A stretch of 64,000 bases of DNA from Eledone cirrhosa (Eukaryota). How positions within the stretch are numbered: the stretch's first letter is position 1; the number at the start of each line of letters is the position of its first letter. The stretch is from positions 246,574,001 to 246,638,000 of the forward strand of contig OZ024742.1 of the NCBI GenBank assembly GCA_964016885.1, given 5' to 3'. Below are positions 4,960 through 59,560 of the stretch, piece by piece. Made by a program: the position numbers and the translations under genes. The notes under the pieces are model-generated. The model searched no databases. It worked only from the letters and a program-made list of their open reading frames with translations, and was not told where the DNA came from.

Positions 4960-4963
<4 letters not shown>
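4202..4963 (-). mobile_element. Retrozyme-like family D, one 594-bp monomer plus ~168-bp terminal redundancy
   Basis: Direct repeat 4202-4369 / 4796-4963; homologous to 34571-35716; HHR at 4441-4530. Confidence 0.85.
4441..4530 (-). ncRNA. Type I hammerhead ribozyme, U3:A8 core variant
   Basis: TCCTC-TTGATAA-GTCGGCA...TGCCAC-GAAA-CTACGTAG-TC-GAGGA: 5-bp stem I, palindromic stem III, GUC site. Confidence 0.85.
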
Positions 4964-5032
<69 letters not shown>

Positions 5033-5900: not shown

Positions 5901-6408
5901 TAGAATTGGCGCTCTGAAATAGCTATATATATATATGAATGTATATATAGTATATTTTGCAATACACAGTATGCTTAATTAAAAGCATTTCGAATACCTT
6001 ATGCTATTGTTTTAGAGTAGTGACATTCTCTCTTACTTTAAATTTTCAGCAAACAGGGGGAGATAAAGCTATGTTTCATACTGATTGGTACTTATCAAAG
6101 CCAAGTACCCCACCTGTTTGCTGAAAATCATGAATGTTTGATTCTTATAGAATTTCTAGTAATAATCAGGAACTGATTATACAGAGCGGTTGCCGGTCAA
6201 GCAGAAATTGAAAATTAGAATTGGCGCTCAGAAATAGCTATATATATATGAATGTATATATAGTGTATTTTGCATATATAGTGTATTCCCCCTGTTTGGT
6301 GAAAACTTAAAGTAAGTGAGACTGTCACTACTCTAAAACAATAGCATAAGGTCTTCGAAATGCTTTTAATTAAGCATACAGTGTATTGCAAAATACACTA
6401 TATATACA

Positions 6409-6413
<5 letters not shown>
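5901..6413 (-). mobile_element. Retrozyme-like family F: 314-bp tandem monomer on minus plus an inverted arm (~6288-6413)
   Basis: TTAGAATTGGCGCTC at 5901 and 6215; 6288-6413 is the reverse complement of ~5930-6058; degenerate TTGATAA HHR at 6067-6102 enclosed by TTTTCAGCAAACAGG/CCTGTTTGCTGAAAA; related to 60338-60915 and 17057-17235. Confidence 0.75.
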
Positions 6414-7345: not shown

Positions 7346-8869
7346 ACAATCCGTGACAGCTCTTTGGAATAACGACATGAAACGCATGTGTTTCTGTATC
7401 AATACATTGCGGTGTCTTTCATATGTATTACTTATAGATTACCTACTGTGCTATCTGAAGACCACGTTTCAGAGATTGCGTCATGGTATCACGGCTATAG
7501 CGTAATTAAATAATTTATGAAATCTAGTATTCGTTTTATTATATTGATGCATTTAACTCCGCCCTGTGTTACCCATACGATACCAAAATTGGTAGAATAT
7601 ACATATCATCGAGTGCTCTGTCCTTATTACACCCTGACTCTTTTTAATGAAGCGACATAATCACAGCCTAGACTACCAATTAGGAAGCACTCTCACGCAC
7701 ACACACACACTCACTGACACACATACACACACTCACACACACACACACCACATTACATATAATTATGTGCGTGTCTATGCATGTTTACACACACTTTCAC
7801 ACAAACTCACACAAACGCACATACATACATACACACACAGACACACACAGGCACGCACATACACAGGCATACATATATATATATGTGTGTGTATGTGAAT
7901 GTGTTTGTGTGTGTGTGTATGTGTGTGTGTATGTGTGCATACACATGTACACTTTCACACAAACGCATATATATACATAGCCACACGCACACACACATAT
8001 ATATATACACACTTGCGCACTCAAAATCTTACTTACGCATATACATGCACACACACACATATATGTGTGTACACTTGAAGACCATGTATAAACACATGCA
8101 CTTGTATAAACACATGCACAAACTCACACATATATATACACATTCACACACCTATTCCTAAACACTCGTAAAGACGTATTCACACACACACACATTTCGA
8201 CATTTTACAAAAGATTATAAGGTCTATTTAATTAATCAATTATTAAATGTGAAGAACTACTAATATTGTGGCGACCATTTTGATGTATGCTTTTAAAATG
8301 GCGGCCAGACCCAGACAGATGCTGGAGGCTATGATGTCATTATCATGTGAGGCTTCAGTTCAGTGGAAAGTATGCTATGTTTTTGAGGAATGGACGAGAA
8401 ACAGTAACACGTGAAACTGGAGCTAATAGAGAATCACAACAAAAAATGTAAGAATACAGGCGGTGTTTGGTTATCATGCCGCTGAGGAAAATCAGTTGTG
8501 GTTAAGATATTGTTTATTTTTCCATTAGTCAGGAAGAAATGTCAGTGTTTATGTCCCTTTTTATGGGACTCCAAGACTGGAGGTAAAGATTGGATAGGGG
8601 TAGGGATATGTATTTATCTGCAAACCTGAGTCTTGGTCAGAATCAGCTCTGCTAAAGGAACCCAAGAATTATCTGGCGGTGTTAAATTGAGCAATGGATT
8701 AAGACTTCCACCTAGGTCGGCCACAGTGGAATTTGTTGGTTTGTTGGTGTGTCACCTCCTACTTGACCTTATTTAATAAACCTGTGACTTGAAGATAAAC
8801 ATCGGCATGAGATGGGACCCACCTATATGTTGTTATAGTAGTACCATGTGGTACTCGCCCCCCCCCATG

Positions 8870-11800
8870 TATAACAATATTTGTTTCGACACACGATTTC
8901 ATATAAAAAACCTCGCAAAACTAATTCATCGCCGTTATAGCATTAGCTTGTGCCAAGCTTATTGAAAGACACTGTTTTCTGTTATATAAAAACTACAATA
9001 TCAACAGAACAAATCCGCTTCTTAAACACTGTGTTTCCTCCAAAATATACAGAACAAACATATCAAAACAAGTAAATAATTTATTATTGAACAAAACACA
9101 AGCTGAACGACTAAAACACACAATAACAGTTAATATGAAAAGAACAACATACACAAAAGTCAACGAACTTTACAGACAGAAACGCATTAACGGTAAGGAA
9201 GTCCGAAATCTCACCACACCAAACGAGAGGGATAACTTCATGAGCGTCATCCGACGTGAAACGAAATACGCCCGAAACGAATGCAATAGGCATTTCAATA
9301 AGAAATTAGAATGGATGAATAAGAAAAAACTACTAGAAAGGAAAATAGAATATTCTCAAAAATACCCAGATAACATCAACAATATCCGCATGACTGATGT
9401 AAAACTACCGGAATAATTTACCAATGACCACACAGTAAATATTTATGGGAACACTTTAATCAGTGAACAATAACAACAAATACTGCAGCTACCATCAAAA
9501 TTTTCCATCTACAAAAAGATTAACCCTATTGAGTGCAAAACGGAGCTGGAAAAGTGTTTCACAAAAATACGTTGGAATGCAAAGGTAAACAACAACAACA
9601 ACAACAATAATAACGGTAGTAGTAATATAAACAATAACTCTGAGTATAGAAATAACAGCCATAACAATAACAATAACAGGAAAGTGAGAAATAGTAATAA
9701 TGTTAATAATACTAACGATAGAAAGAACAACAACAACCATAATAATAATAGTAATAGAAACATTAACCACAGACACAGCAGCAGCGACCACAGTAGTAAT
9801 AACGGTAACAATACGAACAACAACAACAATAACCACAGTGGTAATAATGGAAATAATACATGTAGCAACATTAATGATAGACACAACAAAAACAAGAAAC
9901 ATAATAATAGTAACAACCACAATGGTAGAAATAACAGTAACAATAACTAACGGTGAAGTAAACAACAATACATCTAGCAATCATAACAATCATAATAATG
10001 CTAATGATAGGAACAACAACAACCACCATGATAACAATAATAGCAACACACACAACTATGACGATAGATATAATGACAACAACTTAGAGAAACTATTTTT
10101 CAACCCAGCTGACAAAACATATAAGATGGGTAATATCTATCCTACGAGGTTACCCTTTAATAAAAGAGTTTGCATACCACAACAAATAGATGACGAGACA
10201 GAGGCACAGTTCACCATAGCTAGAAATAAGATTAGACAAATAGTAGACAGGTATACGAAGAGACAGAGAAGACCTGAGGCCCAACAACTTGGGAGGAAAC
10301 CTGTAGAAGGCTTGGTTAGCCCCAAGCAGCGCACAAGGGATGGTGAGGTAGTATGTCTACCCACGGATGAGTCTGGTAGGATGTCAATAGATAGCATGCC
10401 GAACTTCATCAAGGCTATGCAACCCCACATCACCAGCACGAGCGAAATTGCACAACAAACACACGATGGGAGAGAGAAAATCCTCAACGCTCACATAATG
10501 ATGTGGACTGATATCCTAAAGCCAAGCAGACGCACTGCCAACAACTTCCAGGCGTCTAACAATGGCATACCACCCTTGTATGGACTCCGCAAAGACCACA
10601 AGACAGTCGACGACCCGACAACAGGACCACCAACAAGACTCGTATGCGGAGCTAATATAGCTCATAACTACAGGATCTCCTACTTCCTCTCAATGGTTAT
10701 ACGCCCCATAATCAAGATGTTCCCGGATGTATGTGACAGTACAGAGGACCTCCTCAGCAGAATCAGTGAGTGCAACAAAAACAGGAACCTATCCAACTGC
10801 ATAATAGGCAGCATGGATGTGGTGTCACTGTACCCATCCATTAACATTGATTTTGCTGTGAAAAAATGTGTGGAGATGATCATTGAGAGTGAGGTGGAGT
10901 TCTGCGACGTCGACACAGACGAACTGGGCCTCCTACTTAGACTTACCTACGACACGGACTACCTAGACAGCCATGACCTTAGACGTTTCTGCCCTAGTAG
11001 ACCCATAAGAGGTAGACCCCCACCATAACCTCAATGGCAAAAAAGACTCCCATGGGAAGGTGGATTGGGTGGACCAAAGCTATACGGACCCCCCAAAACA
11101 ATGATCAGGTAAGAAAAATGGTCGCACATGCAATAGAGGCTAGTATCAAAACTACCCTCAAGGGCCACATATTTAAGTTCAACGAGAAGATCTACACCCA
11201 AAATGAAGGAGCAGCCATTGGCGTCAGCATAGCTGGTGATGTTGCCAACCTTTTCATTGTATGGTGGGAAAGGAGACTTAAAGATCTCCTTAATGAGAGC
11301 TCTATAGACCTCATCATGTACTCTCGTTATGTAGACGATATCAATATAGTTATAAGAACATTCCCACAAGAGAGCACTAACAAGTTTGATTTAGAACGTA
11401 GCACAATGGAAAGCATCCAGCAGATAGCTAATTCCATACACCAGAGTATAACTCTAACTATCGACTTCCCTTCCAAACACCCTAACAATAGACTACCTGT
11501 ATTAGACACAGAACTCTGGATTAACACTATAGACGAGAGAGCCCAAATTCTCCACTCACACTATGCTAAACCCATGGCCTCCAAATACCTGATACTCAAA
11601 AACTCAGCAATGTCCAGTAGTGCTAAGTTTAATATTCTGATCGCAGATTTGGTACGAGTGATGAAGAATGTGTCCCGCATGTGCGACCCAACAGAAATGG
11701 AAAGACACATCCAACACTTCATCAACCGCATGCAGTTCTCTGGCTACAACCAAAGAGACAGAGTCAGAGTATACGAAGGAGCCATGGAGAAGTATAAGAC

Positions 11801-12485
11801 CCTCATAGAACTGGACATGAAAGGAATTTGCCCATTATACAGGAGCAAATCATGGAATAGCTTAGATAGGGCTAGACATAAGATAGGGAAAGTCACCTCA
11901 TGGTACGACAACCAGAGATACCAGAGTGTCATGTTTGTGGACGCTACCCCTGGAGGGAAATTAGCTAACCAGTGTAGAAAGGCCCCGAGAAAGACCCACT
12001 TAAAAATTAAGGTGGTAGAAAAGCCAGGAACCACCATAAAATCCCTGATCAGCAAAACCTACCCTTTTAAGAAAACCCACTGTACCAATAGGAAATGTAT
12101 CAAATGTAAGGTAAACCCCCGGATAAACTGTAAAACTAGAAACGTAGTCTATAGCATAAGATGTACAGAGGGTACCTGCAGAAACATGACAACAACATAC
12201 ATAGGTGAGACAGCTCGTAGCATAGGTGAAAGGATAGACCAACACTGGGGGGAACTAAAAGGACGAAAAAACGGTTCAGTACTATACGAACATGCCAGAC
12301 AACAACATGACGGTAACATAGACAACATAGAAATTAGAATAATATCTAAACATAGAAATGACCCAGCAGATAGGCAAATCAGAGAGGCCAGTGAAATAGA
12401 AATTAGAAGACCAAGACTAAACAGAAAGAATGAATGGAATAACAACAACACCCAAACAAACAACACTGACCTAAGAGAAGTATAA
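8870..12485 (+). pseudogene. Disrupted PLE RT/GIY-YIG endonuclease ORF
   Basis: RT motifs LYGLRKDHK, DVVSLYPSI, GAAIG, RYVDD; Cys linker CTNRKCIKC; EN motifs NVVYSIRC...YIGETARS...R..QH...EASEI; TAA stops at ~9414 and ~9471 (GAA in copy 22305-22934); 1-nt loss in the C-run at ~11020 relative to the copy at ~38905. Confidence 0.92.
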
Positions 12486-12745
12486 ATAAGTAAATAAAAT
12501 AAAATAAAATAAATAAATAAATAAATACATACACAAGCACAATAACAACAAACACATAAACACACATTAGTTACCCAATCACGAACACCCATCACACATC
12601 AATCAAAACACTATACACACACGCAAACGCATGCGCAAAGGAGACAAAATAAAATAAACAAACAAGCAAATAGATAATTAAATATATAGACAGACTGAAT
12701 AAAAATGGCGTAGCCATACAATTCAACAGGAGGAAACAATAGAAC

Positions 12746-12783
12746 CACTGACGATGTTGCAGATGTGCAACGAAAGATTTATG
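12746..12783 (+). ncRNA. Minimal type I HHR in the family A pLTR
   Basis: CA-CTGACGA-T-GTTGCA-gatg-TGCAAC-GAAA-gatt-TA-TG; homologues at 23316-23357(+) and 37135-37172(-, CTGATGA); within the core only N7 varies. Confidence 0.75.
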
Positions 12784-13431
12784 ATAAACTATATATATGT
12801 GTTTGTGTCTATATTGTATCTGTATTATTTTTGACCGTCGGTCAGTCAATGGCAACAGTGAGGACCGAATATATTAGATTACCGATATAAAAGACACAGA
12901 AGCAAAAAGCGAAAACCAACCAAACAGTGAGTGTGTTCTGTTATTAATTCTGGCAATATTACAGAAATATGACCCTCCCCAAGTATAACAATATATATAT
13001 AACGTTGAAAGAGATAGACGGCTAAACAATGCAAAGTGGACTGTAAGATGGGGTAACGAAAAGTAAAAGTGAGCTAGTAATCTTTGTTTTGTTGTTGTTA
13101 TATATTGGTCAGTATTCTGATAATTTGATCACTCATAGACGGTAATTAAGGTCGAGTGACGTAATTTCTAACGATCAGCGGCTTTTAGACTCACCTGGAT
13201 AATGAAACAATTTTTAATACTCTAAATAAACCCTTTTGTACAGCCGACCATGTTATTCTTCATTCTTTTACTATTATCACTCCAAGAACCACCTGCCTAG
13301 GAACTTTCTTAAATCGGCCACCCGACTAAGGAAACTTCTTGTTGAATCAAACAACGCCGTACCTTAAAACTATCCTTGACACGGAGTACACACAACTTCT
13401 AGCTAGATTACCTTAAACGATACCTTGTTAT

Positions 13432-13463: not shown

Positions 13464-13467
<4 letters not shown>

Positions 13468-13642
13468 CAAGCTCATATGACCCAAGGCTCTGATACCACC
13501 AACACTATAAAAACAGAGCTGGCATATCTAAGAACTGACTAACTGCCTGATGAGGTCATAGCCATTCAATGGCTATCATCGAAATATATATAGCAGTAAA
13601 TAAAGGATTATGAGTTCATGCAATTGACTTATGTTTCGTCAC
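13464..13642 (+). mobile_element. ~180-bp non-coding HHR element between (TA)n tracts
   Basis: ACTGC-CTGATGA-ggtcATAGCCATT-c-AATGGCTATcatc-GAAA-TATATA-TA-GCAGT at 13542-13597. Confidence 0.8.
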
Positions 13643-13658
13643 TATATATATATATATA

Positions 13659-13838
13659 TTAGAAAGTGAGGTTTTTTTTACAAAATAAAAAAAAAACGAG
13701 TGTCCTACACGAGTGAAAGTATAAGGAAAAAAGATGAAATCGAAAATGCAGCTGGAGTCTTTTTTTATAAAAATAAATATATATTTTTATAAAAAAAGTC
13801 TCCAGCTGCATTTTCGATTTGATCTTTTTTCCTTATAT
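13659..13838. repeat. Asymmetric fold-back mini-element
   Basis: Arms ~13720-13775 and ~13783-13838; left arm has ~60 extra nt; (TA)n on both sides. Confidence 0.75.
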
Positions 13839-14003: not shown

Positions 14004-14417
14004 TATATATATGTTGTTATACTTTGGGAGGGTCATGTTGCCAATAAGAAACACACGCACCAGTTGCTTTCATTTCAATTGATTATGATAAACTTATAAA
14101 TTTAGGAATTTATAAATTTATAAATTTCTGGTTGGTTGGTTGGTTCCACAACCAGATAGTTGTTTATATATTGTCAAAGTTCTTTCGTCACACATTCTGT
14201 GACCTCATCAGTAACTGGGGATTCTTTTCTTTGTTTTTTGTGCCTCTCCTTTGTTCTGTCCTACGCCATTTTGTTTCTGTGTGTGTGTTATGTGCTCAGT
14301 CTGCGCATGCGCCACATCCGGGCGTCTGTGTGTGTTTATATTTGTTTATTTATTTGTTTATTTACATGTTACCGGTTGGTTGTTTGTTCTATGTGTGTGT
14401 GTGTTTTCATTTTGTCC

Positions 14418-15110
14418 TTAATTGTAAGTTGTGATGTTGCTGTTCCACTCATATTTTCTATTTAATTTTGGTTGTAATTCTTTTATGTTTATTGCCTCTG
14501 TGATTTGTCTAAACATTGCGTCTTTTCTGTGTGTAGATTCTATTTTTATTTCTATGTTCTCTAATTTACCCTTATGTTCTATTTTAGCATGTTGGTAGAG
14601 TACAGATGATTCTTTACTATCTTGAAGGTCTCGCCAGTGTTCATTTATCCGTTCCCCTACACTACGGGCTGTCTCACCTATGTACACTATATTTTTGTCT
14701 CTACATTGTCCTTCAGTACATCTTATGCTATACACTACATTTCTAGTTTTACAGTTAATATGGGGGCTTATTTTACAGGTTATACATTTCTTATCTATAC
14801 AGGGGGGTCTTTGAAAAGGGTATGTCTTGCTAATAAGTGTTTTTACGGCGGTACCTGGTCTTTCTACTATCTTAATATTGAGTTTATGTTTATCTAGGGC
14901 CCTTCTAAATTTGTAAGCTAATTCACCTCTAGGGGTTGTATCGATGAACATTACACTCTGGTATTTATTACTATCATACCATGAGTTTATTCTATTAGCC
15001 TTATTCCTAGTTCTTTCTATTCTATTCCAAAATTTGCTCCTATACAAGGGGCAGGTCTTATTTGTGTCATTATTTACCATTTTTTCCCATTTGGTTCTGG
15101 CTCCTCTATA
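14418..15110 (-). pseudogene. 5'-truncated inverted copy of the family B GIY-YIG domain
   Basis: ORF 14418-15080 nearly identical to the C-terminus of ORF 15362-16573. Confidence 0.9.
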
Positions 15111-16573
15111 CCAGGAAGAGGCAGACCACCTACCATTACCTCAATGGCCAAGAAAATCCACACAGATAGATGGAACGGGTGGACCAGAGCCATACGGACA
15201 CCCGAAAACCACGATGAACTGAAGAAAATGATTGCACATGCGGTAGGGGCCAGCATAAAACTAACCCTTAAGGAACATATGTTCAAATTTAAAAAACATA
15301 TGCCCGAGAGGAAGGAGCAGCCATTGGTGTTAGCATTGCAGGCGACATAGCTAACTTATTCATGGTATGGTGGGACAGTAGACTTAAACTTAAACTTAAA
15401 GAACAATTAGAAGACCCCTTAACCCTGGTAATGTACTCCCGCTACGTTGATGATATAAACATCGTAGTTAAGACACCCCCACTAGAGAACAGTCAGGAAC
15501 TAGATAAAAACACAATGGAAAGCATCCAACAAATAGCTAACTCCATCCACCAGAGTATTAGAGTTACTATAGACTCCCCAAGTAAACACCCCAACCATCG
15601 ATTACCTGTACTAGACACAGAGCTCTGGTTAGGTACCATTAATAACAAAAAACAAATCCTCCATTCCCATTATGCCAAACCCATGACTTCCAAACACCTG
15701 ATCCACCGAAACTCGGCTGTTTCGGACCATACCAAAATCAACATACTGATTGCGGATTTGGTACGGGTGATGAGAAACGTGTCCCGCATGTGCAACCCCG
15801 AAGAACTAGAGAGACACATACAACACTTCATCCACCGTATGCAGTTCTCTGGTTACAATCAGAGAGATAAAATCAGAGTGTATAGAGGAGCCAGAACCAA
15901 ATGGGAAAAAATGGTAAATAATGACACAAATGGGACTTGCCCCTTGTATAGGAGCAAATTTTGGAATAGAATAGAAATAACTAGGTATAAGGCTAATAGA
16001 ATAAACTCATGGTATGATAGCAATGAATACCAGAGTGTAATCTTCATCGATACAACCCCTAGAGGTGAATTAGCTTACAAATTTAGAAGGGCCCTAGATA
16101 AACATAAACTCAATATTAAGATAGTAGAAAGACCAGGTACCGCCGTAAAAACACTTATTAGCAAGACATACCCTTTTCAAAGACCCCCCTGTATAGATAA
16201 GAAATGTATAACCTGTAAAATAAGCCCCCATATTAACTGTAAAACTAGAAATGTAGTGTATAGCATAAGATGTACTGAAGGACAATGTAGAGACAAAAAT
16301 ATAGTGTACATAGGTGAGACAGCCCGTAGTGTAGGGGAACGGATAAATGAACACTGGCGAGACCTTCAAGATAGTAAAGAATCATCTGTACTCTACCAAC
16401 ATGCTAAAATAGAACATAAGGCTAAATTAGAGAGCATAGAAATAAAAATAGAATCTACACACAGAAAAGACGCAATGTTTAGACAAATCACAGAGGCAAT
16501 AAACATAAAAGAATTACAACCAAAATTCAATAGAAAATATGAGTGGAACAGCAACATCACAACTTACAATTAA
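15111..16573 (+). pseudogene. 5'-truncated PLE RT/GIY-YIG ORF (family B)
   Basis: GRPPTITSMAK, frameshift near 15295, then RYVDD, CIDKKCITC, VVYSIRC...YIGETARS; collinear with family A. Confidence 0.92.
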
Positions 16574-16775
16574 GGACAAAATGAAAACACACACACACAT
16601 AGAACAAACAACCAACCGGTAACATGTAAATAAACAAATAAATAAACAAATATAAACACACACAGACGCCCGGATGTGGCGCATGCGCAGACTGAGCACA
16701 CAACACACACACAGAAACAAAATGGCGTAGGACAGAACAAAGGAGAGGCACACAATACAAAGAAAAGAATCCCCA

Positions 16776-16818
16776 GTCACTGATGAGGTCACAGAATGTG
16801 TGACGAAAGAACTTTGAC
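16776..16818 (+). ncRNA. Minimal type I HHR in the family B pLTR
   Basis: GTCA-CTGATGA-G-GTCACA-gaatg-TGTGAC-GAAA-GaaC-TT-TGAC; copies at 14173-14215(-) and 31814-31856(-, CTGAAGA). Confidence 0.85.
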
Positions 16819-17056
16819 AATATATAAACAATTATCTGGTTGTGGAACCAACCAACCAACCAGAAATTTATAAATTTATAAATTCCTAATTTTATAAATT
16901 TATTATAATAAATTGAAGTGAAAGCAACTGGTGCGTGTGTTTCTTATTGGCAACATGACACTCCCAAAGTATAACAATATCGGTTTCAACACACGATTTC
17001 AGATAAAGAATCTTGCTAAACAAATTCAGAAACGAAATATATATATATATATATAT

Positions 17057-17235
17057 GTATATATAGTGTATTTTGCAATATACTTTATGCTTAATTAAAA
17101 GCATTTTGAAGACCTTCTGTTTGCTGAAATTAAAGTAAGTGGGTCTGTCACTACTCTAAAACAATAGCATAAGGTCTTCAAAATGCTTTTAATTAAGCAT
17201 AAGTGTATTGCAAAATACACTATATATACATTCAT
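17057..17235. mobile_element. Family F fold-back fragment
   Basis: Inverted arms matching 5940-6000 and 6290-6413. Confidence 0.75.
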
Positions 17236-17277
17236 ATATATATGGGTATTTCACACACCAACTCTAATATATATATA

Positions 17278-17693
<416 letters not shown>

Positions 17694-21411: not shown

Positions 21412-21461
<50 letters not shown>

Positions 21462-21462
<1 letters not shown>

Positions 21463-23607
21463 CGGAGTCCATACAAGGGTGGTATGCCATTGTTAGACGC
21501 CTGGAAGTTGTTGGCAGTGCGTCTGCTTGGCTTTAGGATGTCGGTCCACATCATCATTTGAGCGTTGAGGATTTTCTCTCTCCCATCATGTATTTGCTGT
21601 GCAATTTCGCTCATGTTGGTGATGTGGGGTTGCATAGCCTTGATGTAGTTCGGCATGCTGTCTATTGACATCCTACCAGACTTATCCGTGGGTAGACATA
21701 TTACCTCACCATCCCTTGTGCGCTGCTTGAGGCTAACAAAGCCTTCTACAGGTTTCCTCCCAAGTTGTTGGACCTCTGGTCTGCTTTGTCTCTCAGTATA
21801 CCGGTCTACTATTTGTCTAATCTTATTTCTAGCTATGGTGAACTGTGCCTCTGTCTCGTCATCTATTTGTTGTGGTATGCAAACCCTTTTATTAAAGTGT
21901 CACCTCCTAGGATAGATATTACCCATCTTATATGTTTTGTCAGCTGGGTTGAAGAATAGTTTCTCTAAGGGGTTGTCATTATATCTTTCGTCATAGTTGT
22001 GTGTGTTGCTATTATTGTTATTATTGTGGTTGTTGTTCCTATCATTAGCATTATTATTATTGTTATGATTGCTAGATGTATTGTTGCTATGATTGTTAAT
22101 TGTATTGTTGTTGTTTTCTCCACTGTCATTGTTGTTGTTACTGTTATTTCTACCATTGTGGTTGTTACTTTTATTATGCTTCTTGTTTTTGTTGTTGTTG
22201 TGTCTATCTTTAATGTTGCTACATATATTATTTCTATTATTAACACTGTGGTTGTTGTTGTTGTTGTTCTGTCTATCGTTAATATTATTACCATTATTAC
22301 TATTTCACACTCTCCTGCTATTGTTATTGTTATGACTATTACTATTATAGCTGTTATTTCTATACTCAGTGTTATTGTTTATATTACTACTATCGTTATT
22401 ATTGTTGTTGTTGTCCGTATAGTTGTTGTTGTTTACTTTTGCATTCCAAAGTATTTTTGTGAAACACTTTTCCAGCTCCGTTTTGCACTCAATAGGGTTA
22501 ATCTTTTTGTAGATGGCAAATCTCGGTGGTAGCTGCAGGATTTGTTGTTCTTGTTCACTGATTAAAGTGTTCCCATAAATATTTACTGTGTGGTCATTGG
22601 TAAATTCTTCCGGTAGTTCTACATCAGTCATACGGATTTTGTTGATGTTATCTGGGTATTTTTGTGAATATTCTATTTCTCTTTCTTCTAGTTTTTTCTT
22701 ATTCATCCATTCTAATTTCTTATTGAAATGCCTATTGCATTCGTTTCGGGCGTATTTCGTTTCACGTCGAATGACGCTCATGAAGTCATCCCTCTCGTTC
22801 GGTGTGGTGAGATTTCCGACTTCCTTACCGTTAATGCGTTTCTGTCTGTAAAGTTCGTTAACTTTTGTGTATGTTGTTCTTTTCATATTAACTGTTATTA
22901 TGTGTTTTAGTCGTTCAGCTTGTGTTTTGTTCAATAATAAATTATTTACTTATTTTGATATGTTTGTTGTGTATATTTTGAAGGAAACACAGTGTTTTAA
23001 GAAGCGGATTTGTTCTGTTGCTATTGTAGTTTTTATATAACAGAAAACAGTGACTTTCAATAACCTTTCAGCTTGGCACAAGCTAATGTCATAACGGCGA
23101 TGAATTAGTTTTGCGAGGTTTTTGATATAAGCTAAGATAGAATACAATAACCAATACACAGTCACCCAAACACGAACACACATCAAACAAAAGACTATAC
23201 ACACACGCAAACGCATGCGCAGAGAAGACAACAAAATAAACAAATAAATAAATAAATAAACAGACTAAATAAAGATGGCGTAGGCATACAATGCAACGGG
23301 AGGAAACATAATAGCACCACTGACGATGTTACAGATGTGCAACGAAAGAACTTTGTTAGACTATATATATATGTGTTTGTGTTTATATTGTATCTGTATT
23401 TTTGACCGTTGATCAGTCAATGGTAACATTGAGGACCGAATAAATTAAATTAACCGATATAAAGGACACAGAAGCGAAAACCAACCAAACAGTGAGTATG
23501 TTCTGTTATTAATTCTGGCAATATTATTACACAAATATGACCCTCCTCAAGTATAACAATATTTGTTTCGACACACGATTTCACATCAAAAACCTCGCAA
23601 AACTAAT
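21462..23607 (-). mobile_element. PLE family A: 5' ORF portion on minus (21462-~23128) with an inverted pLTR plus tail (~23140-23607)
   Basis: ORFs 22950-23243, 22305-22934 and 21375-21671 match the N-terminal half of the 8870 copy; plus-strand pLTR with HHR 23316-23357 and ATG at 23537. Confidence 0.9.
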
Positions 23608-31035: not shown

Positions 31036-32090
<1,055 letters not shown>

Positions 32091-32134
32091 ATATATATAT
32101 GGATGTATATATATATATATATTCATATATATAT

Positions 32135-32391: not shown

Positions 32392-32411
32392 GTTTTGCCG
32401 CATATGTACAC

Positions 32412-32489
<78 letters not shown>

Positions 32490-34182: not shown

Positions 34183-34185
<3 letters not shown>

Positions 34186-34355
34186 AAAATGTTTAACCCC
34201 GACGGCAGAGCTCAAGCCATTTCGACGGCTATTTCTGAAATAGTCGTCGAAACGGCTTGAGTTCTGCCGTCGGGGTTAAACATTTTCCTATTACCCTAAG
34301 TATTGAGTACTCTGGTGCGTTATGATACATCTGGTTCCTTGCCACACCTCTTTGG

Positions 34356-34392
<37 letters not shown>

Positions 34393-34521
34393 CAACAAGG
34401 AACCAGGTAGACCATAAGGCACCATAGTACTCGATACTTAGGGAAATAGAGTGGGTAATAGGAAAAGAGTCAGGACCCCGGGTTAGTTCGGATCTAGCTG
34501 TCGAAAGGCCGGAGCTCTTTT

Positions 34522-34525
<4 letters not shown>
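34183..34525. mobile_element. Two adjacent asymmetric fold-backs of family G (34183-34358 and 34390-34525)
   Basis: Short arm ends at TTTTC(C/T)TAT; long arm continues TACCC...GAGTACT.TGGTGC.TTATG; third copy at 57286-57395. Confidence 0.75.
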
Positions 34526-34570: not shown

Positions 34571-34575
<5 letters not shown>

Positions 34576-35716
34576 TTAGAAACACACAGATACATGCGGA
34601 CACACACATATACATGAATGCATCCGCACCCAACCGTGAGTTAAGGGTGCCAACTTCACCGATGTTGCTCAATGAATAACTGGGACAGACCAATCCGGTT
34701 GAACTAGACTGAACCAGTATCAGAGTTAAAAATACATTATGAAGAGAGAAGAAACATTTAGATATAATTAGTAATAAAATGTATCATACCTAAACTGCTC
34801 CTAGATTCCTCGACTACGTAGTTTCGTGGCATAAACAAAAACAATACATCATAAAGATATAGAGTTAAAAATACATTATGAAGAGAGAAGAAACATTTAG
34901 ATATAATTAGTAATAAAATGTATCGTGTAGACGCGTTCTTGAGACTAGTAAAATGAGGTATCCTCTTGATAAGTCGGCAGACCTCGCAATGACTCTATAT
35001 CTTTATGATGTATTGTTTTTGTTTATGCCACGAAACTACGTAGTCGAGGAATCTAGGAGCAGTTTAGGTATGATACATTTTATTACTAATTATATCTAAA
35101 TGTTTCTTCTCTCTTCATAATGTATTTTTAACTCTGATACTGGTTCAGTCTAGTTCAACCGGATTGGTCTGTCCCAGTTATTCATTGAGCAACATCGGTG
35201 AAGTTGGCACCCTTAACTCACGGTTGGGTGCGGATGCATTCATGTATATGTGTGTGTCCGCATGTATCTGTGTGTTTCTAAATATATTGTTAATAACTCC
35301 CTCTGGTCGAGCAATCTTTGAGGTGTGGGGACTGCTGGAAAGCTTCCATTACTCATACTTCTCTCCCCTTCACCACCTCTTCTACGGCTTCGATATAAAT
35401 ACCCCCTCCGCCTCCGTGGTATTTTCTTCGGGGTTATAAGAGGCTTAGCTCTGTTTCTCGACCGTTATATCGCGTGACTATCTCCCCCTCCGCCTTTTGG
35501 GATTCTTTCTCACGTCGTGTAGACGCGTTCTTGAGACTAGTAAAATGCGGTATCCTCTTGATAAGTCGGCAGACCTCGCAAGGACTCTATATCTCTATGA
35601 TGTATTGTTTTTGTTTATGCCACGAAACTACGTAGTCGAGGAATCTAGGAGCAGTTTAGGTATGATACATTTTATTACTAATTATATCTAAATGTTTCTT
35701 CTCTCTTCATAATGTA
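34571..35716 (+). mobile_element. Family D: inverted arm (34571-34924) plus 1.3 tandem monomers with two HHRs
   Basis: TTGATAA HHRs at 34961-35050 and 35553-35642 (period 592); internal ~64-bp duplication at 34861-34924. Confidence 0.87.
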
Positions 35717-35747: not shown

Positions 35748-36014
<267 letters not shown>

Positions 36015-36299: not shown

Positions 36300-36302
<3 letters not shown>

Positions 36303-36849
36303 GATAAATCTACCAAGAGTTTACGGTAGTGTCCAATCCGTATGAAGAACTCAATGTAATCCGGATATCATGGAAAGAAGAGATGCATTCAAAAATCACT
36401 TCCGGTGAAAGATAAACGGAATACAGAGTCAAGATAAAATATTAAAAAAATAATGAATAAAACAATGAAACAGTTCCTTATATTAAACAAAAAAAGTTCA
36501 TTATTTAACGATCGTTTCTAGGACATATATGTGTTAGAATTGGCATGCATATTTAACAGATCTATGTACAAAATTATACAAAATTATACAACTATCAAAT
36601 TTAATATACATACCAACACATATATATGCCGTCTTCAGAAATAATATTTATTTCTGAAGACGGCATATATATGTGTTGGTATGTATATTAAATTTGATAG
36701 TTTGTATAATTTTGTATAATTTTGTACATAGATCTGTTAAATATGCATGCGAATTCTAACACATATATGTCCTAGAAACGATCGTTAAATAATGAACATT
36801 TTTGTTTAATATAAGGAACTGTTTCATTGTTTTATTCATTATTTTTTTA

Positions 36850-36860
<11 letters not shown>
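36300..36860. mobile_element. Fold-back of the family N pLTR end with two HHRs
   Basis: Arms ~36436-36645 and ~36649-36858; left arm has a ~136-nt extra tail; matches 46861-47212 and 55025-55221. Confidence 0.88.
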
Positions 36861-43007: not shown

Positions 43008-43385
<378 letters not shown>

Positions 43386-46372: not shown

Positions 46373-46526
<154 letters not shown>

Positions 46527-47816
46527 TAAAATAACAGATTAAAGTTTAAGCAAAGAATCTCTGCTTAATTCCCGTTAAGGGTGAACGCATTGCTTAAACT
46601 TTAATCTGTTATTTTAATAAACATTTGCTTTACGGTTCTTATATATTTGATATATATTTATCCTTATCGAGCCCTCTTTGGATTTTAGTCTTCAAATTTA
46701 TTATTATTACTATATAATCCTTTATTATTACTATAATCCTTTATTATTACTATATTCATCCTTACGGGGTCGATAAAATAAAGAACCAGTAATACACTCG
46801 TTAATTGCTGGCCTTGTGCCAAAAGTAGAAACAATTATTACTATATATATATATATATATGTAGATAAATCTACCAAGAGTTTACGGTAGTGTCCAATCC
46901 GTATGAAGAACTCAATGTAATCCGGATATCATGGAAAGAAGAGATGCAATGAAAAATCACTTTCGGTGAAAGATAAACGGAATACAGAGTCAAGATAAAA
47001 TATTAAAAAAATAATGAATAAAACAATGAAACAGTTCCTTATATTAAACAAAAAAAGTTCACCATTTAACGATCGTTTCTAGGATACACATGTGTTAGAA
47101 TTGGCATGCATATTCAACAGATCTATGTACAAAATTATACAAAATTATACAAACTATCAAAATTAAATATACATACCAAACACATATATATGCCGTCTTC
47201 AGAAATAATGAAATATATTTATTGATAATAACAACAATTCAAAATTACAGGTCTGTTTGGGAGCAGAGTTCAAATTGACCAATGAAAATACAAAAAGTTT
47301 ATACAGTTAGGTGTGTGTATATATATGTAAGTAACTTCGTTCACAGATATGCATAAAGATATATGTTCACATGCATACGCATGCCAAAAAGATGTATGTA
47401 AATACAAAAATTCAAGGCTAATGTCTCTGTATGTTTATAATCTACAGATAAAATACGTATGCACATATAAATATAAAATAAATATATACACACATTCATA
47501 TACTCACACATATACGTACATTCACACACACACGCGCGTATACGCATAAACATACACACAACCACGAACATACATACACACATACACCCCCACACACATA
47601 TATATGTGTGTATATACTATTATCATAAGCATATGGACATTAATGCGCGCACATAAACACTGCCACACACATTTAGATCCAGATACAGAAAGTAAGTGGG
47701 GGGGGGGGGGTAGGAGGTCAGTATTCACCGGTGTCAACAGACTGCCTATTTATAAATGTATCTATAAACTTAGAAATAAAAAGAAAAGAAAAAGAAAAAA
47801 GAAATATATCAAGAAA

Positions 47817-47903
<87 letters not shown>

Positions 47904-48199
47904 CACATATATATAAACAAGTAAAATATATAATATACATCGATATACATACATATACATATATATATATATACATACACATATACACATACATGCATAT
48001 ACATACATATACATACACATATACACAAACACATACATACACATGCATATACATACACACACCATATAAATACACATACACACACGCATACATATAGAGA
48101 CACATACATATACACATATAAATACATAGACATATACCCACATATATATATATATACACATACACGCATACATATATATACATACATTCACAACACACG

Positions 48200-48312
<113 letters not shown>

Positions 48313-48376
48313 CTACACACATATATATAAATACACTCATGCATATACACACATACACATTCATACCCACACATAA

Positions 48377-48409
<33 letters not shown>

Positions 48410-48426
48410 TACATACACATATACAC

Positions 48427-48467
<41 letters not shown>

Positions 48468-48535
48468 TATATATATACACACACACATAAACATACACAT
48501 ATATAAAGATATATATACACACACACCCACATATA

Positions 48536-48578
<43 letters not shown>

Positions 48579-48877
48579 CACACACATACATACTCATACA
48601 TAGACATACATATATACACACACACACATACACACATACATATACGCATATATACACATACATACACATCCATGTATGCGTATATACATACAAAACAAAT
48701 ACCACCACACGCTCACACAACTCAGACATACATAGATAAAGGGATATACATACACGTATATACATATATAAATAGAGATACATATACATATATAAATATA
48801 TACACACATACACACACACACATACATATACATACATACATACATACATACATATACACACACATACACACACATAC

Positions 48878-48945
<68 letters not shown>

Positions 48946-49090
48946 CATATATATATACATATATATATATATACATATATATAAAAAAAATAAAGAAATA
49001 AGATAAATAAATAAATAAATAAATTAATACACACAGTCAGAAAAATATGCACACACATACATATACACATATATATACACATACACATAC

Positions 49091-49131
<41 letters not shown>

Positions 49132-49977
49132 CACACATACATACATATATATATATATACACACATACATACATCAACTACAAATATATATATATATATA
49201 TATAATACATATAATATATATATATATATATATACACACACTCACATATACATGCGCACATACGTACACATATACACATACACACATATACACATAGACA
49301 TATACATGTGCCTACATATACATACACACATATACCCACATAAATACATAGATACATATATATATATACACATATATATACACATATATATATATACACA
49401 CATATATACACACATATATATACATATATATATATATACACACAATCTTACACCCTTATTTACATGCGCACATATGTATTTTTATACTCACATACAAACA
49501 CCCAAACATACATACCTACCTACATATACATACATACATCCACGCTTACAAATACAAATAATAATAGTAGGGGGGTGGGAAAAGGGGGGGGGGGATTATA
49601 ATAAATATAGGTTTCAAGAAACATAGAATATTAATCTGCATTTAGATCATAATATGTGTTTACTTAGTTTCAGTATTAGGAAATGTAAGAAAGAAGGCAA
49701 AATTATGCATTTCAATATAAGTATACCATTAATTATAGGTTAACTAAACTAAAGATAGTTAATATATTGATTTATAAGGTGTATACTACTTAGGTTTATA
49801 ATATTTGAAGCGGAACTTTGAAGTTAAATAGTAGTAGAGTATTAATTATAGTATAACTAAATTAAAATTATTAACGTTATGGTATCAATATTAGGAAATG
49901 AATTTAGTAATAGGGAAAAACAAATAAAGTATTACATCGGTAGTAGAATATAAATTATAGGTTAACTAAATTAAAAT

Positions 49978-51516
49978 GAATACTGGACCAGAAACACATA
50001 TAGTAATCTATTTGATATTACTATGGGTTCAAGTGATTCCGCCCAAATTACTGATCTTGTGGGCCTCTTTCTCCTTTTCAACATAAATGCCTCCTTTCCC
50101 CACCTTAAAGGTGGTTTATATCGTGATGACTGTCTTCTTCTTTCCAACAACCTTAGCCTTTCAGAAATAGAAAAAAACAAAAAGCATATTAGAACTTTCC
50201 TTAAAGACTATTATAGTCTTCATATTACTTTTGAAAAAACAAGTAAAGTAGTAAATTTCCTAGATATAACTTTAGACTTAGCTACGGGTATCTACCAACC
50301 TTACCATAAACCCAACCAAAACTTACACTACATACACTCACAATCTAATCACCCTAAATCTATCCTTAAAAACCTTGCATATAATATATCACTTAGAATT
50401 TCTAACCTTTCTTCTAACCAAGATGTATTTGATAAAAATGCGACCTTCTATAACGAAGCTCTAGATAGAAGTGGCCACAAAAATAGATTAGAATATATAC
50501 CTTCTACTAAAAATACTATAAACATACAACCTAATATTACCAACAAACACCAAATGAAAAGTACACACCTAAATGCCACCCACACTATACCCCAAAATAC
50601 CAACTCTTCTAATATAAAGTATAGTAACCCTCAAAAAACTACTCATCATACAACTCTAATAAATGTTAATAATAAAACTCCTAATAAACAAGATAAAACA
50701 CCTAAATCTACAAATCTAACTAAAAATGTGCGTGGTGAGATCATTAACATTAATCCTCCTAGTAAACATCACGATACAACCTATAAAAATAATAAACAAC
50801 ATAGAAACCGTAATAGACGGGTTACTTGGTATAATGCTCCATTTAATTTACAAATTAAGGATAATATTGCTAAAAATTTTTTTTATATCCTAGAGAAAAA
50901 CTTCCCGCCAAACCACAAATACCATCAAATCTTAAATAGGTCTACAGTTAAATTCTCATACTCAACAACAAATAACATAAAACAAAATATAAGTGCCTAT
51001 AATACATATAAATGTAAGAATACCATAAGTATACCACCAATACATCAAACTAACCATAATATCTCCTCAAATACAGAATTAACGAAAGGTTGTAACTGTA
51101 GAAACAAAGCAAACTGCCCATTAAAAGGAAATTGTCTTGTTAACAACATAGTTTATAAATGTAATGTTAAAACTAAAGATTCTATTTGCTCATATATAGG
51201 AGCTACTTCTAACAATTTTAAGGCAAGGTCTAATACCCACAAACATAGTTTTTAAAATGCCGCACTGGCTAATACAACATCTCTAGCAGAAAAAATCAAT
51301 AGTTATAAAAATAAGAATATAGAATATGATTTGACCTGGAGTGTGCTCAAAAGAGCCACCCCTTATCAAAATAATAGAAATGAATGTAGATTATGTTCCC
51401 AAGAACTATTTGAAATAATGAAATCTAAGGATATCCTATTAAATAAACGACAGGAATTAATTATATCGTGTAATCATAAACTAAGAAAAACATTTAAATA
51501 TTATAAACCTAATTAA
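49978..51516 (+). pseudogene. 5'-truncated PLE RT/GIY-YIG ORF with one in-frame TAA (51253-51255)
   Basis: FDITMGSSDSAQITDLVG, GLYRDD, VNFLDITLDL, SNHP, CNCRNKANCPLKGNC, IVYKC...YIGATSNNFKAR..H, CRLCSQE, LNKRQE..C.H. Confidence 0.92.
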
Positions 51517-52007
51517 TAACATTATTTTAGAAATTAATATATAATTTAATTTAAATGTTAGTTAACCTATAAATTTAATTTAATTAAAATTCTACTACAG
51601 ATGAGATTATAAAATATTGCGTAATCATAAATTGTGAAAAACTTTTAAATATTAGTAATATATACTTCGTAAATTAATTTATAGATTAATTTTAATTTAT
51701 TTAACCTTTTATTTAAATTCCTTTACAGATAAAATATAGCAAAATATCGTGTATTCAATGACAGAGAAATAATTTTTAGTATTATAGACCTAATTAATGT
51801 ACATTTTTAGAAATATATTTATAATTTGGTTTTAAATTTGGTCAACCTAAAAATTTTATTTAATTGGCTTAAAATTAATATCCTAATACAGATGGATTGC
51901 AGAGTGTCATGTAATCATAGACTGAGATAGGTTTTGGATGTATACCTAGTTAATATATTCTTTGCAATTTTTGAAAAAATATGTATATGTATGTATATAT
52001 GTGTATG

Positions 52008-52038
<31 letters not shown>

Positions 52039-52956
52039 GTATATGTATATGTGTATGTATTAATTTTAATTTTAATTTTAATTTCTGTTTACCTATAATT
52101 ATATTCTACTATAGATAAAATACAATATCTATTTTAATTATTATAAACCTAATTAACATATACTATAGAAATTAATATATAATTTTTAATTTAGTTAACC
52201 TATAATTTATATTCTACTACCGATGTAATACTTTATTTGTTTTTCCCTATTACTAAATTCATTTCCTAATATTGATACCATAACGTTAATAATTTTAATT
52301 TAGTTATACTATAATTAATACTCTACTACTATTTAACTTCAAAGTTCCGCTTCAAATATTATAAACCTAAGTAGTATACACCTTATAAATCAATATATTA
52401 ACTATCTTTAGTTTAGTTAACCTATAATTAATGGTATACTTCTATTGAAATGCATAATTTTGCCTTCTTTCTTACATTTCCTAATACTGAAACTATGTAA
52501 ACACATATTATGATCTAAATGCAGATTAATATTCTATGTTTCTTGAAACCTATATTTATTATAATCCCCCCCCCCTTTTCCCACCCCCCTACTATTATTA
52601 TTTGTATTTGTAAGCGTGGATGTATGTATGTATATGTAGGTAGGTATGTATGTTTGGGTGTTTGTATGTGAGTATAAAAATACATATGTGCGCATGTAAA
52701 TAAGGGTGTATGATTGTGTGTATATATATATATATATGTATATATATGTGTGTATATATGTGTATATATATATATATATGTGTATATATATGTGTATATA
52801 TATATATGTATCTATGTATTTATGTGGGTATATGTGTGTATGTATATGTAGGCACATGTATATGTCTATGTGTATATGTGTGTATGTGTATATGTGTACG
52901 TATGTGCGCATGTATATGTGAGTGTTGGTATATATATATATATATATTATATGTAT

Positions 52957-52987
<31 letters not shown>

Positions 52988-53037
52988 AGTTGATGTATGT
53001 ATGTGTGTATATATATATATATATGTATGTATGTGTG

Positions 53038-53082
<45 letters not shown>

Positions 53083-53231
53083 GTATGTGTATGTGTATAT
53101 ATATGTGTATATGTATGTGTGTGCATATTTGTCTGACTGTGTGTATTAATTTATTTATTTATTTATTTATCTTATTTCTTTATTTTTTTTATATATATGT
53201 ATATATATATATGTATATATATATGTATATA

Positions 53232-53347
<116 letters not shown>

Positions 53348-53674
53348 GTATGTGTGTGTATGTGTGTGTATATGTATGTATGTATGTATATGTATGTGTG
53401 TTTGTGTGTGTATGTGTGTATATATTTATATATGTATATGTATCTCTATTTATATATGTATATACGTGTATGTATATCCCTTTATCTATGTATGTCTGAG
53501 TTGTGTGAGCGTGTGGTGGTGTTTGTTTTGTATGTATATACGCATACATGGATGTGTATGTATGTGTATATATGCGTATATGTATGTGTGTATGTGTGTG
53601 TGTGTATATATGTATGTCTATGTATGAGTATGTATGTGTGTGTATGTATGTGTGTATATATATGTATGTGTGTG

Positions 53675-53759
<85 letters not shown>

Positions 53760-53837
53760 TATATGTGGGTGTGTGTGTATATATATCTTTATATATGTGT
53801 ATGTGTATGTGTGTGTATGTGTGTGTGTATATATATA

Positions 53838-53868
<31 letters not shown>

Positions 53869-53982
53869 GTATATGTGTATATGTGTATGTATGTGTATAT
53901 GTGTATATATATATATATTTATGTGTGGGTATGTATGTGTATGTGTGTATATGCATGAGTGTATTTATATATATGTGTGTAG

Positions 53983-54039
<57 letters not shown>

Positions 54040-54351
54040 CGTGTGTTGTGAATGTATGTATATATATGTATGCGTGTATGTGTATATATATATATATATA
54101 TATGTGGGTATATGTCTATGTATTTATATGTGTATATGTATGTGTCTCTATATGTATGCGTGTGTGTATGTGTATGTGTATTTATATGGTGTGTGTATGT
54201 ATATGCATGTGTATGTATGTGTTTGTGTATATGTGTATGTATATGTATGTATATGCATGTATGTGTATATGTGTATGTATATACATATATATGTATATGT
54301 ATGTATATCGATGTATATTTTATATTTTACTTGTTTATATATATGTGTATG

Positions 54352-54418
<67 letters not shown>

Positions 54419-55024
54419 TTTCTTGATATATTTCTTTTTTCTTTTTCTTTTCTTTTTATTTCTAAGTTTATAGATACATTTATAAATAGGCAGTCTGTTG
54501 ACACCGGTGAATACTGACCTCCTCTCCCCCCCTCCCCCCCACTTACTTTCTGTATCTGGATCTAAATGTGTGTGGCAGTGTTTATGTGCGCGCATTAATG
54601 TCCATATGCTTATGATAATAGTATATACACACATATATATGTGTGTGGGGGTGTATGTGTGTATGTATGTTCGTGGTTGTGTGTATGTTTATGCGTATAC
54701 GCGTGTGTGTGTGTGAATGTACGTATATGTGTGAGTATATGAATGTGTGTATATATTTATTTTATATTTATATGTACATACGTATTTTATCTGTAGATTA
54801 TAAACATACAGAGACATTAGCCTTGAATTTTTGTATTTACATACATCTTTTGGCATGCGTATGCATGTGAACATATATCTTTATGCATATCTGTGAACGA
54901 AGTTACTTACATATATATACACACACCTAACTGTATAAACTTTTTGTATTTTCATTGGTCAATTTGAACTCTGCTCCCAAACAGACCTGTAATTTTGAAT
55001 TGTTGTTATTATCAATAAATATAT

Positions 55025-55179
55025 TTCATTATTTCTGAAGACGGCATATATATGTGTTTGGTATGTATATTTAATTTTGATAGTTTGTATAATTTTGTAT
55101 AATTTTGTACATAGATCTGTTGAATATGCATGCCAATTCTAACACATGTGTATCCTAGAAACGATCGTTAAATGGTGAA
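55025..55179 (+). ncRNA. Type I HHR with a ~116-nt stem II region
   Basis: TTCATTATTT-CTGAAGA-[GGCATATATATGTGTT...AACACATGTGTATCC]-GAAA-CGATCG-TT-AAATGGTGAA; the stem I 3' strand is AAATAATGAA in other copies, and both versions pair. Confidence 0.82.
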
Positions 55180-55233
55180 CTTTTTTTGTTTAATATAAGG
55201 AACTGTTTCATTGTTTTATTCATTATTTTTTTA

Positions 55234-55355
<122 letters not shown>

Positions 55356-55648: not shown

Positions 55649-55665
55649 GTATGTATGCATATGTT

Positions 55666-57248: not shown

Positions 57249-57290
<42 letters not shown>

Positions 57291-57453
57291 AAAGTCTTGA
57301 CGCTTTTCCTATTACCCACTCTACTACACTAAGTATTGTCGAGTACTCTGGTGCGTTATGATCCACCTGGTTCCTTACCATACTTTCTTTCTTTTATATA
57401 TATATATATACATACATACATACATACATACATACATACATACATACATACAT

Positions 57454-59042: not shown

Positions 59043-59556
59043 TAAAATATTAAAAAAATAATGAATAAAACAATGAAACAGTTCCTTATATTAAACAAAA
59101 AAAGTTCATTATTTAACGATCGTTTCTAGGATATATATGTGTTAGAATTGGCATGCATATTCAACAGATCTATGTACAAAATTATACAAAATTATACAAA
59201 CTATCAAGATTAAATATACATACCAAACACACATATATGCCGTCTTCAGATATTTAATCTTGATAGTTTGTATAATTTTGTATAATTTTGTACATAGATC
59301 TGTTGAATATGCATGCCAATTCTAACACATATATATCCTAGAAACGATCGTTAAATAATGAACTTTTTTTGTTTAATATAAGGAACTGTTTCATTGTTTT
59401 ATTCATTATTTTTTTAATATTTTATCTTGACTCTGTATTCCGTTTATCTTTCACCGAAAGTGATTTTTCATTGCATCTCTTCTTTCCATGATATCCGGAC
59501 TACATTGAGTTCTTCATACGGATTGGACACTACCGTAAACTCTTGGTAGATTTATC

Positions 59557-59560
<4 letters not shown>
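59043..59560. mobile_element. Fold-back of the family N pLTR end
   Basis: Short minus arm 59043-59250; long plus arm 59251-59560 with tail. Confidence 0.88.

Follow-up and report, generated by a model that had tools for sequence, protein, structure and literature searches.

Penelope-like elements (PLEs) are the sister group of the telomerase reverse transcriptases (RTs). For EN+ PLEs, an inverted 5'-truncated copy has been described together with an optional tail of 30-40 bp that is often found at one end only, and the available text of that account calls the mechanism open (PMC8557442). The tail overlaps the start of the ORF, and self-priming on an antisense template has been proposed for rotifer Penelopes (PMC3846280). 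For an anole PLE studied in vitro, two RT start sites bound the tail, and both DNA strands are cleaved and extended (PMC11167929); inverted repeats, tail and second-strand completion are named as open in the accessible parts of PMC8557442 and PMC11167929. PLE hammerheads are covered, and pairs on opposite strands noted, in PMC4209133, and twin priming and dual priming have been defined for L1 (PMC2837659). The available portions of PMC13282606, PMC9977147, PMC12910113 and bioRxiv 10.64898/2026.07.22.740005 add nothing on pairing.

The 64,000-nucleotide stretch of Eledone cirrhosa DNA analysed here (the window) contains many head-to-head fold-backs. The initial annotation had proposed that both of their 3' ends face outward into (TA)n, one arm stopping at a family-specific point P and the other running on through a short tail to a point Q. 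Inverted arms with (TA)n outside both ends were seen at all of the loci it had cited (Table 1). The P end of the large N pair is at ~55240, not 55221; the other ends lie within about 10 nt of the positions originally given, the Q end of the I pair, for instance, being at 46710 rather than 46700. The family G example placed at 57286 retains its Q arm, the short arm of 6-9 nt being indistinguishable from chance.

Table 1. Positions of paired and solo insertions in the window and of the features within them.
Feature	Position	Strand	Remarks
Near full-length A copy; starts at P/tail region, broken RT-GIY-YIG frames, ends at P	8859..13001	+	
B P arm, inverted copy of 15880-16980	14011..15111	-	(TA)n lies to the left of P
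B Q arm: 5'-truncated PLE with RT C-terminal half, linker, GIY-YIG, 3' UTR/pLTR and tail	15112..17036	+	
Open frame with YVDD RT motif, CX4CxxC linker and GIY-YIG	15293..16573	+	PF01541 E 5e-4, below curated cutoff
Hammerhead-like core (CTGATGA, stem II, GAAA) in B pLTR	16780..16808	+	Motif match only
B tail, 60 nt, P to Q	16977..17036	+	Codons ~8-27 of next unit's ORF
B pair: long P arm 31680-32067 and 27-nt tail-only Q arm	31680..32086		
B-related pair, 81-84% to B reference: Q arm left, P arm right	35748..35905		
N pair: Q arm left, P arm right, 137-nt tail	36300..36858		
N pair: P arm left, Q arm right, 137-nt tail	59045..59559		
Large N pair: Q arm 46861-49976 (-), longer P arm 49975-55240 (+)	46861..55240		
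RT/GIY-YIG-type frame with CxCX5C linker, in large N P arm	49975..51255		5'-truncated
D pair: Q arm on the left; on the right a 592-nt unit in tandem, ending at P; tail of 161 nt	34571..35716		
F pair: ~1.2 tandem units form the left, Q-ended arm; P arm at 6287-6412; tail ~32 nt	5901..6412		
Second F pair: P left, Q right; (TA)n run shared with B Q end	17057..17266		Absent from initial annotation
G pair: P arm left, Q arm right	34184..34356		
G-subfamily pair: Q arm left, short P arm right	34388..34524		
G Q arm and possible 6-9-nt P arm	57287..57394		P arm too short to distinguish from chance
H pair: Q left, P right, 65-nt tail	13660..13833		
K pair: P left, Q right, 66-nt tail	43008..43283		
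I pair: P left, Q right, 90-nt tail	46523..46710		
A pair: inverted 5' ORF half (23128 to 21460) joined to Q-ended 3' arm (23160-23607)	21460..23607		

At the family B locus, 14011-15111 and 15880-16980 are 98% complementary across 1101 nt, and the ORF of the next unit begins with an ATG at 16955. No record bridging the 15111/15112 joint was found among the contigs and reads listed, so the locus rests on assembly; contigs show (TA)n loose ends at 16980. RAD reads from two other samples with the same species label carry four identical opposite-strand joints in family B, each covered by 55-108 reads with 1-2 start points. It is extremely unlikely that the fold-backs are an assembly artefact, or two independent insertions in one microsatellite. 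The unbridged joint would fit such an origin, as would the observation that one (TA)n run often hosts independent copies, but the arms have no (TA)n run separating them, most arm pairs differ by substitutions (0-7%, counted from substitutions only since gap-including values of 11-21% are inflated), independent insertions would neither pair P with Q nor share alleles, and the same four B joints recur in the RAD reads of both other samples.

Several further structures accompany these pairs. Both arms of the N pair at 36300-36858 stop just upstream of a CTGAAGA motif, and the complementary arms of the large N element span 46995-49976 and 52184-55242. The family N 3' UTR holds a TA/TG microsatellite of ~1.6 kb that is copied in both arms (47817-49438 and 52721-54418). 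The D and F pairs at 34571/35716 and 5901/6412 obey the rule with one arm consisting of a 1.2-1.3-unit tandem. A solo D copy at 4202-4965 also comprises ~1.3 tandem units, with Q on the left and its 5' end at approximately the P position against (TA)n, and at 60338-60924 a 310-nt sequence with similarity to the unit of family F is duplicated in tandem, the copies being 99% identical. Additional fold-backs of families outside our library lie at 26130-26361, which has a P/Q-like offset, 31037-31631, 32122-32416 and 17290-17556. Between (TA)n runs at 13464-13643 is a short solo element in which a complete-looking type I hammerhead pattern was recognised by eye. Two LINE 3' fragments (26361-27156 and 55664-56515) are 88% alike and encode a zf-RVT domain (Pfam E 3e-4) and an RHD...PD motif; these are presumably R4/Dong-like elements with a restriction-type endonuclease.

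The proposal that the fold-backs are PLE insertions is supported. As in EN+ PLEs, a single ORF encodes an RT followed by a C-terminal GIY-YIG endonuclease, the pLTR/tail includes the first codons of the ORF, and the insertions are tandem or inverted with 5' truncation and a one-ended tail. YxDD and YIGxT motifs are present in families A, B and N, with frames broken in the window copies. Pfam matches to the family B GIY-YIG (E 5e-4) and the family A RVT_1 (E 0.002) are both below curated cutoffs; the family A frame has 93 homologues, the best being an Octopus vulgaris protein with 64% identity. The linkers preceding GIY-YIG are CTNRKCIKC in A and CIDKKCITC in B, the CX2-5CxxC form of Neptune/Nematis, and CNCRNKANC in N and CSCRKPEAC in K (at locus L264), which have the CxCX5C form and (TA)n insertion of the Hydra clade. 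We infer from shared P/Q behaviour, hammerhead-like cores and B-G chimeras that the non-coding families D, F, G, H, I, M, R, S and T are PLE derivatives. A relaxed hammerhead core pattern was found, as a motif match, in 9/12 references and was not found in those of N, T and D; an Rfam scan returned no hammerhead in the 150 of 357 matches listed, a list swamped by microsatellite matches. The family A ORF also contains a long asparagine-rich (AAC/AAT) insert (9474-10050 and 21900-22530), similar to the N-rich inserts described for rotifer Penelopes in the available text of PMC3846280.

Pairing of outer ends was scored in a sample of the 3.0-Gb, TA-rich genome made up of the window, 120 random 10-kb stretches and targeted loci. 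The first set comprised 80 evenly spaced stretches of 10 kb, along with loci retrieved by searching with sequence from within P. When 1247 TA-flanked ends taken from 1022 segments were clustered without any reference, P/Q couples recurred, their tails being 45-137 nt long; the D (161 nt) and F (~32 nt) tails were taken from the window. Twelve real copies served as the reference library, which was fixed before a held-out 400 kb of new random DNA was drawn. The (TA)n run threshold was set at 14 nt, and a direct pair was defined as two arms head-to-head between (TA)n runs with an inner gap of no more than 60 nt.

With all samples pooled, 109 of the 115 direct pairs joined P with Q; one was P/P, none was Q/Q and five used other sites. 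This check of P/Q against P/P or Q/Q, run on the sampled stretches, confirms in the sampled genome the pairing across families that had been claimed from the window. At any inner gap the count was 141/149. The first set contributed 84 direct pairs (80 P+Q, 0 P/P, 0 Q/Q, 4 other) and 25 with larger inner gaps (23 P+Q, 1 Q/Q, 1 other), the held-out DNA gave 15 pairs (13 P+Q, 1 P/P, 1 Q/other), and at G-targeted loci all 25 pairs were P+Q. Single-ended matches were balanced (P 74, Q 58, other 8; in the held-out DNA P 12, Q 12, other 2), so that independent choice of ends would give only ~50% mixed pairs. A symmetric-end scan of 860 random and window segments produced four matches. Separately, 15 elements that appeared symmetric (self-inversion, TA runs of at least 10 nt) were rejected, being mostly P/Q elements split by internal TA runs. 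The rule is common to 12 families and to two PLE linker types, and chance is excluded because it replicates outside the window. Approximately 31 direct pairs were present in 1.2 Mb of random DNA (25 in the first set, 6 held-out), which we extrapolate to tens of thousands of pairs genome-wide, a lower bound from 12 families. We conclude that P/Q pairing is a real, genome-wide and very regular trait of a known element class.

Departures from the rule were few. P/P ends occur at L246 and at L111, the latter from a family outside the library and outside the pair tally, and Q/Q ends occur twice in L044 (family B), one of them outside the tally. Three direct cross-family joins were all P+Q: L014 and L016 (B-Q with G-P) and L102 (R-Q with M-P). 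The arms of L036 derive from two B subfamilies, with 11/13 sites discordant. Two further loci, L011 and L023, have filler between their arms and are ambiguous. L056, L037 and window position 42872 were dismissed as cross-family joins, each being a same-family pair beside a solo copy (L056 holds an I P/Q pair, counted as P+Q). The cross-family joins and L036 demonstrate that two RNAs can serve, rarely.

The claim that outer ends are fixed and inner junctions vary was borne out. Families A, B, I and N have many different junctions, with arms from 27 nt to >1.9 kb, and still join P with Q, which argues against inheritance from a few fold-back master copies re-transposed whole, with the far end joined by (TA)n homology. 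G pairs are alike in size (~195 nt), and some junction sequences recur 2-4 times among the 38 listed, as such inheritance would predict; in most loci, however, the G junctions differ at the base level, and we regard inheritance as very unlikely. At the G junctions of L271-L299, one arm often ends in an additional AT or ATT that the G reference lacks, either an untemplated addition or a trace of a fold-back source. Across 78 junctions, the arms overlapped by 1-17 nt in 38, abutted in 6 and were separated by filler in 34.

We next consider the two outer sites. Tail lengths across all families were 32-161 nt, and P and Q fall within the first codons of the next ORF; in the read-through copies L003 and L015, the frame is open from an ATG ~22 nt before P through Q. 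Microhomology between P and (TA)n is 2-5 nt long. At the modal P junction it extends to at least 3 nt of TA in 8 of the 11 families scored (family I could not be scored and was left out), compared with 19% of nearby positions, in agreement with the AT microhomology originally claimed at P. In Q read-through copies of A, B and D the sequence also continues with TA-like letters.

At the other end of the arms, family-specific 5' stops are common to paired arms and some solo copies: at 16690-16720 in B, where the inner stop is placed at about 16705-16716, and ~345 and ~136 nt from Q in N and G, respectively. In M, N and S a CTGA-N-GA core follows a few nt downstream of the stop, and the B stop region is near a AAATGGCG motif, which we take to be YY1-like. 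These stops may be RNA 5' ends or RT stalls. Two solo copies of family A end 504-505 nt upstream of Q, possibly a third priming site.

The relative lengths of the two arms bear on how each pair arose. Arm length was compared in 72 pairs, of which 9 were limited by reference length; L001-L030, which had been chosen with a Q-containing query, were kept out, and 6 pairs from these Q-biased loci are therefore not counted. The P arm reached further 5' by >15 nt in 31/72 pairs and the Q arm in 9/72, the remaining 32/72 ending within 15 nt of each other (p 0.0007). In random and window pairs alone, the P arm was the longer in 13 and the Q arm in 3 (p 0.02). Nine Q arms were tail-only, never reaching P; the other 63/72 reached P. 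Self-priming, in which a cDNA or antisense template folds back and copies itself and the endonuclease then resolves the hairpin at P to leave a one-sided tail, would readily give matching arms and the near-perfect central palindromes that make up 32 of these 72 pairs, and published suggestions of self-priming (PMC3846280) and of a tail made by endonuclease resolution (PMC8557442) can be found in the available text of those sources. However, it predicts that the P arm is nested in the Q arm, the opposite of the bias observed, and would not yield tail-only Q arms; later central deletions should shorten either arm, and cross-family or subfamily-mixed pairs would be impossible. We therefore judge it quite improbable. 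Since the arms are non-nested and some are tail-only, two priming events are needed. The low identity of L018 is explained by an internal duplication.

We also asked whether the two arms share a template. At diagnostic subfamily sites, partner arms were discordant at only 55/740 in 117 pairs, as against 16990/42328 (40%) for random pairs, the G query having spanned the palindrome centre so that G palindromes and concordance are inflated. L036 was the sole clear mixed pair among the 117. Inner ends fell within 15 nt of each other in 27/68 pairs, compared with 17.8 in within-family permutations. The family B tree is star-like and weak, and in this family inner ends coincided in 9/22 pairs (2.1 permuted) at six different positions, including the non-hot-spot positions 146/149, 217/217, 234/240 and 965/954. 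Family A had no excess of coincident inner ends (0/8), and in N and G they were no commoner than the hot spots of those families explain. That the arms have both alleles and scattered stops in common points to a single template molecule. These results suggest that both arms of a pair almost always derive from one template, with gene conversion between arms an uncontrolled confounder of the concordance comparison; concordant arms could also reflect one active source locus per cell, or later gene conversion.

A PLE dimer carrying two RNAs would provide a different route to concordant arms, each break end priming its own RNA, one subunit at P and the other at Q, and the arms matching through a dominant source locus. 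The cross-family and subfamily-mixed pairs (L014, L016, L102 and L036), all P+Q, are expected of such a dimer, and the available text of PMC11167929 predicts that the anole PLE protein dimerises. Overlapping arms would require no displacement, and the family-specific 5' stops, which are also seen in solo copies, could align inner ends. Nevertheless, B inner ends coincide at scattered positions outside the hot spots, mixed pairs are rare (the single clear case above), three or four P+Q chimeras are no different from chance, and the asymmetry between subunits is without known basis. Two RNAs must be used on at least rare occasions, and this route would become the rule were chimeras to prove always P+Q, but as a general account we consider it unlikely.

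Because the arms nearly always share a template, twin priming on one RNA is likely: on balance we favour a model, held with some but by no means full confidence, in which both ends of one break prime the same RNA at P and Q and the cDNAs are joined. The GIY-YIG domain would first cut both (TA)n strands. One DNA end would pair with the 2-5 nt of TA-like RNA at P and copy toward the RNA 5' end, leaving an unpaired tail that lets the other DNA end prime at Q, and the Q-primed cDNA would either abort in the tail or displace the first cDNA. Priming at Q first, followed by an abort in the tail, would give the same product. The two cDNA 3' ends would then be brought together by microhomology annealing or by end joining, each cDNA serving as template for the second strand of the other, to form a head-to-head pair; if only one end primed, a solo P or solo Q copy would result. 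P/P and Q/Q pairs would be disfavoured because a single RNA has each site once. Of the priming from both break ends put forward in the initial annotation, two primings best fit the tail-only Q arms and the non-nested arms, and use of both break ends is presumed, as are strand displacement and the order of priming. Against the one-RNA model, chimeras keep P+Q, which site use on one RNA leaves unexplained, the P/P and Q/Q exceptions occur, inner ends in A, N and G give no support for a shared stop, and the anole PLE in vitro, to judge from the available text, showed neither a strand difference in start site nor homology between start site and cut DNA.

A broader reading, which we offer tentatively and at slightly less than an even chance, is that double priming is programmed: the tail would be a reserved second site, so that from two fixed starts the two ends of a single double-strand cut would copy the same RNA, first strands would serve as mutual second strands, the arrangement would extend to at least two PLE clades, and the keeping of P and Q roles with two RNAs would indicate an asymmetric complex.

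Earlier work, in the accessible text of PMC8557442, PMC3846280 and PMC11167929, already describes the inverted copy, the tail on one side and both start sites. Counts of P/Q pairing, or twin priming for PLEs, were not found in the literature consulted; the 2004-2006 PLE papers, figures and supplements may differ. What appears to be new is how nearly obligate the pairing is, together with the evidence from the arms that one RNA is primed twice. A strict P+Q rule with same-template, non-nested arms yields a concrete model with sharp predictions for the existing in vitro system, and twin priming would likely explain the long-known 'tail' of PLEs, hitherto unexplained. For annotation, these palindromes of 150-600 nt resemble MITEs or miRNA hairpins, yet are retro-insertions.

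The insertions share with canonical EN+ PLEs, as far as the available text of PMC8557442 and PMC3846280 describes them, a GIY-YIG domain C-terminal to the RT, 5' truncation, a head-to-head inverted 5'-truncated copy, a tail that is often one-ended and overlaps the first codons, (TA)n targeting and, as motif matches, hammerhead-like cores. They differ in that the published tail is 30-40 bp and optional, whereas here it is 32-161 nt and pairing is near obligate; and where those papers, in the same portions, invoke self-priming or endonuclease resolution, our arm data favour two primings. Families D and F resemble the non-LTR retrozymes, which are type I hammerhead tandem repeats, in being short tandem-unit, non-coding elements with PLE-like insertion (available text of bioRxiv 10.64898/2026.07.22.740005), but the D reference was without a hammerhead core in a relaxed pattern scan. 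Poseidon of Anolis carolinensis, according to the accessible parts of PMC11167929, likewise has in vitro two internal RT starts that bound the tail near the ORF start, and both strands of AT-rich DNA are cut and extended. Those parts report that the start site did not differ between strands and had no homology to the cut DNA, and do not address inverted pairs; here, in contrast, each end of an insertion has its own site, and 2-5 nt of TA microhomology are present at P. In L1 twin priming, the second DNA end primes internally to give an inverted segment (PMC2837659, available text), a shape shared by our tail-only pairs and by the A pair at 21460-23607, whose inverted half was primed at an internal ORF site in the classical manner. 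The L1-type pattern is one of non-overlapping inverted fragments with target-site duplications; here most Q arms reach P, and target-site duplications are unreadable in (TA)n, so that the process resembles twin priming without following the L1 pattern. Whereas twin priming in L1 is, in the same text, a variant route whose internal site varies and which leaves an internal deletion, the sites used here are both fixed, overlap between the arms is usual and can extend to kilobases, and the process is a main route.
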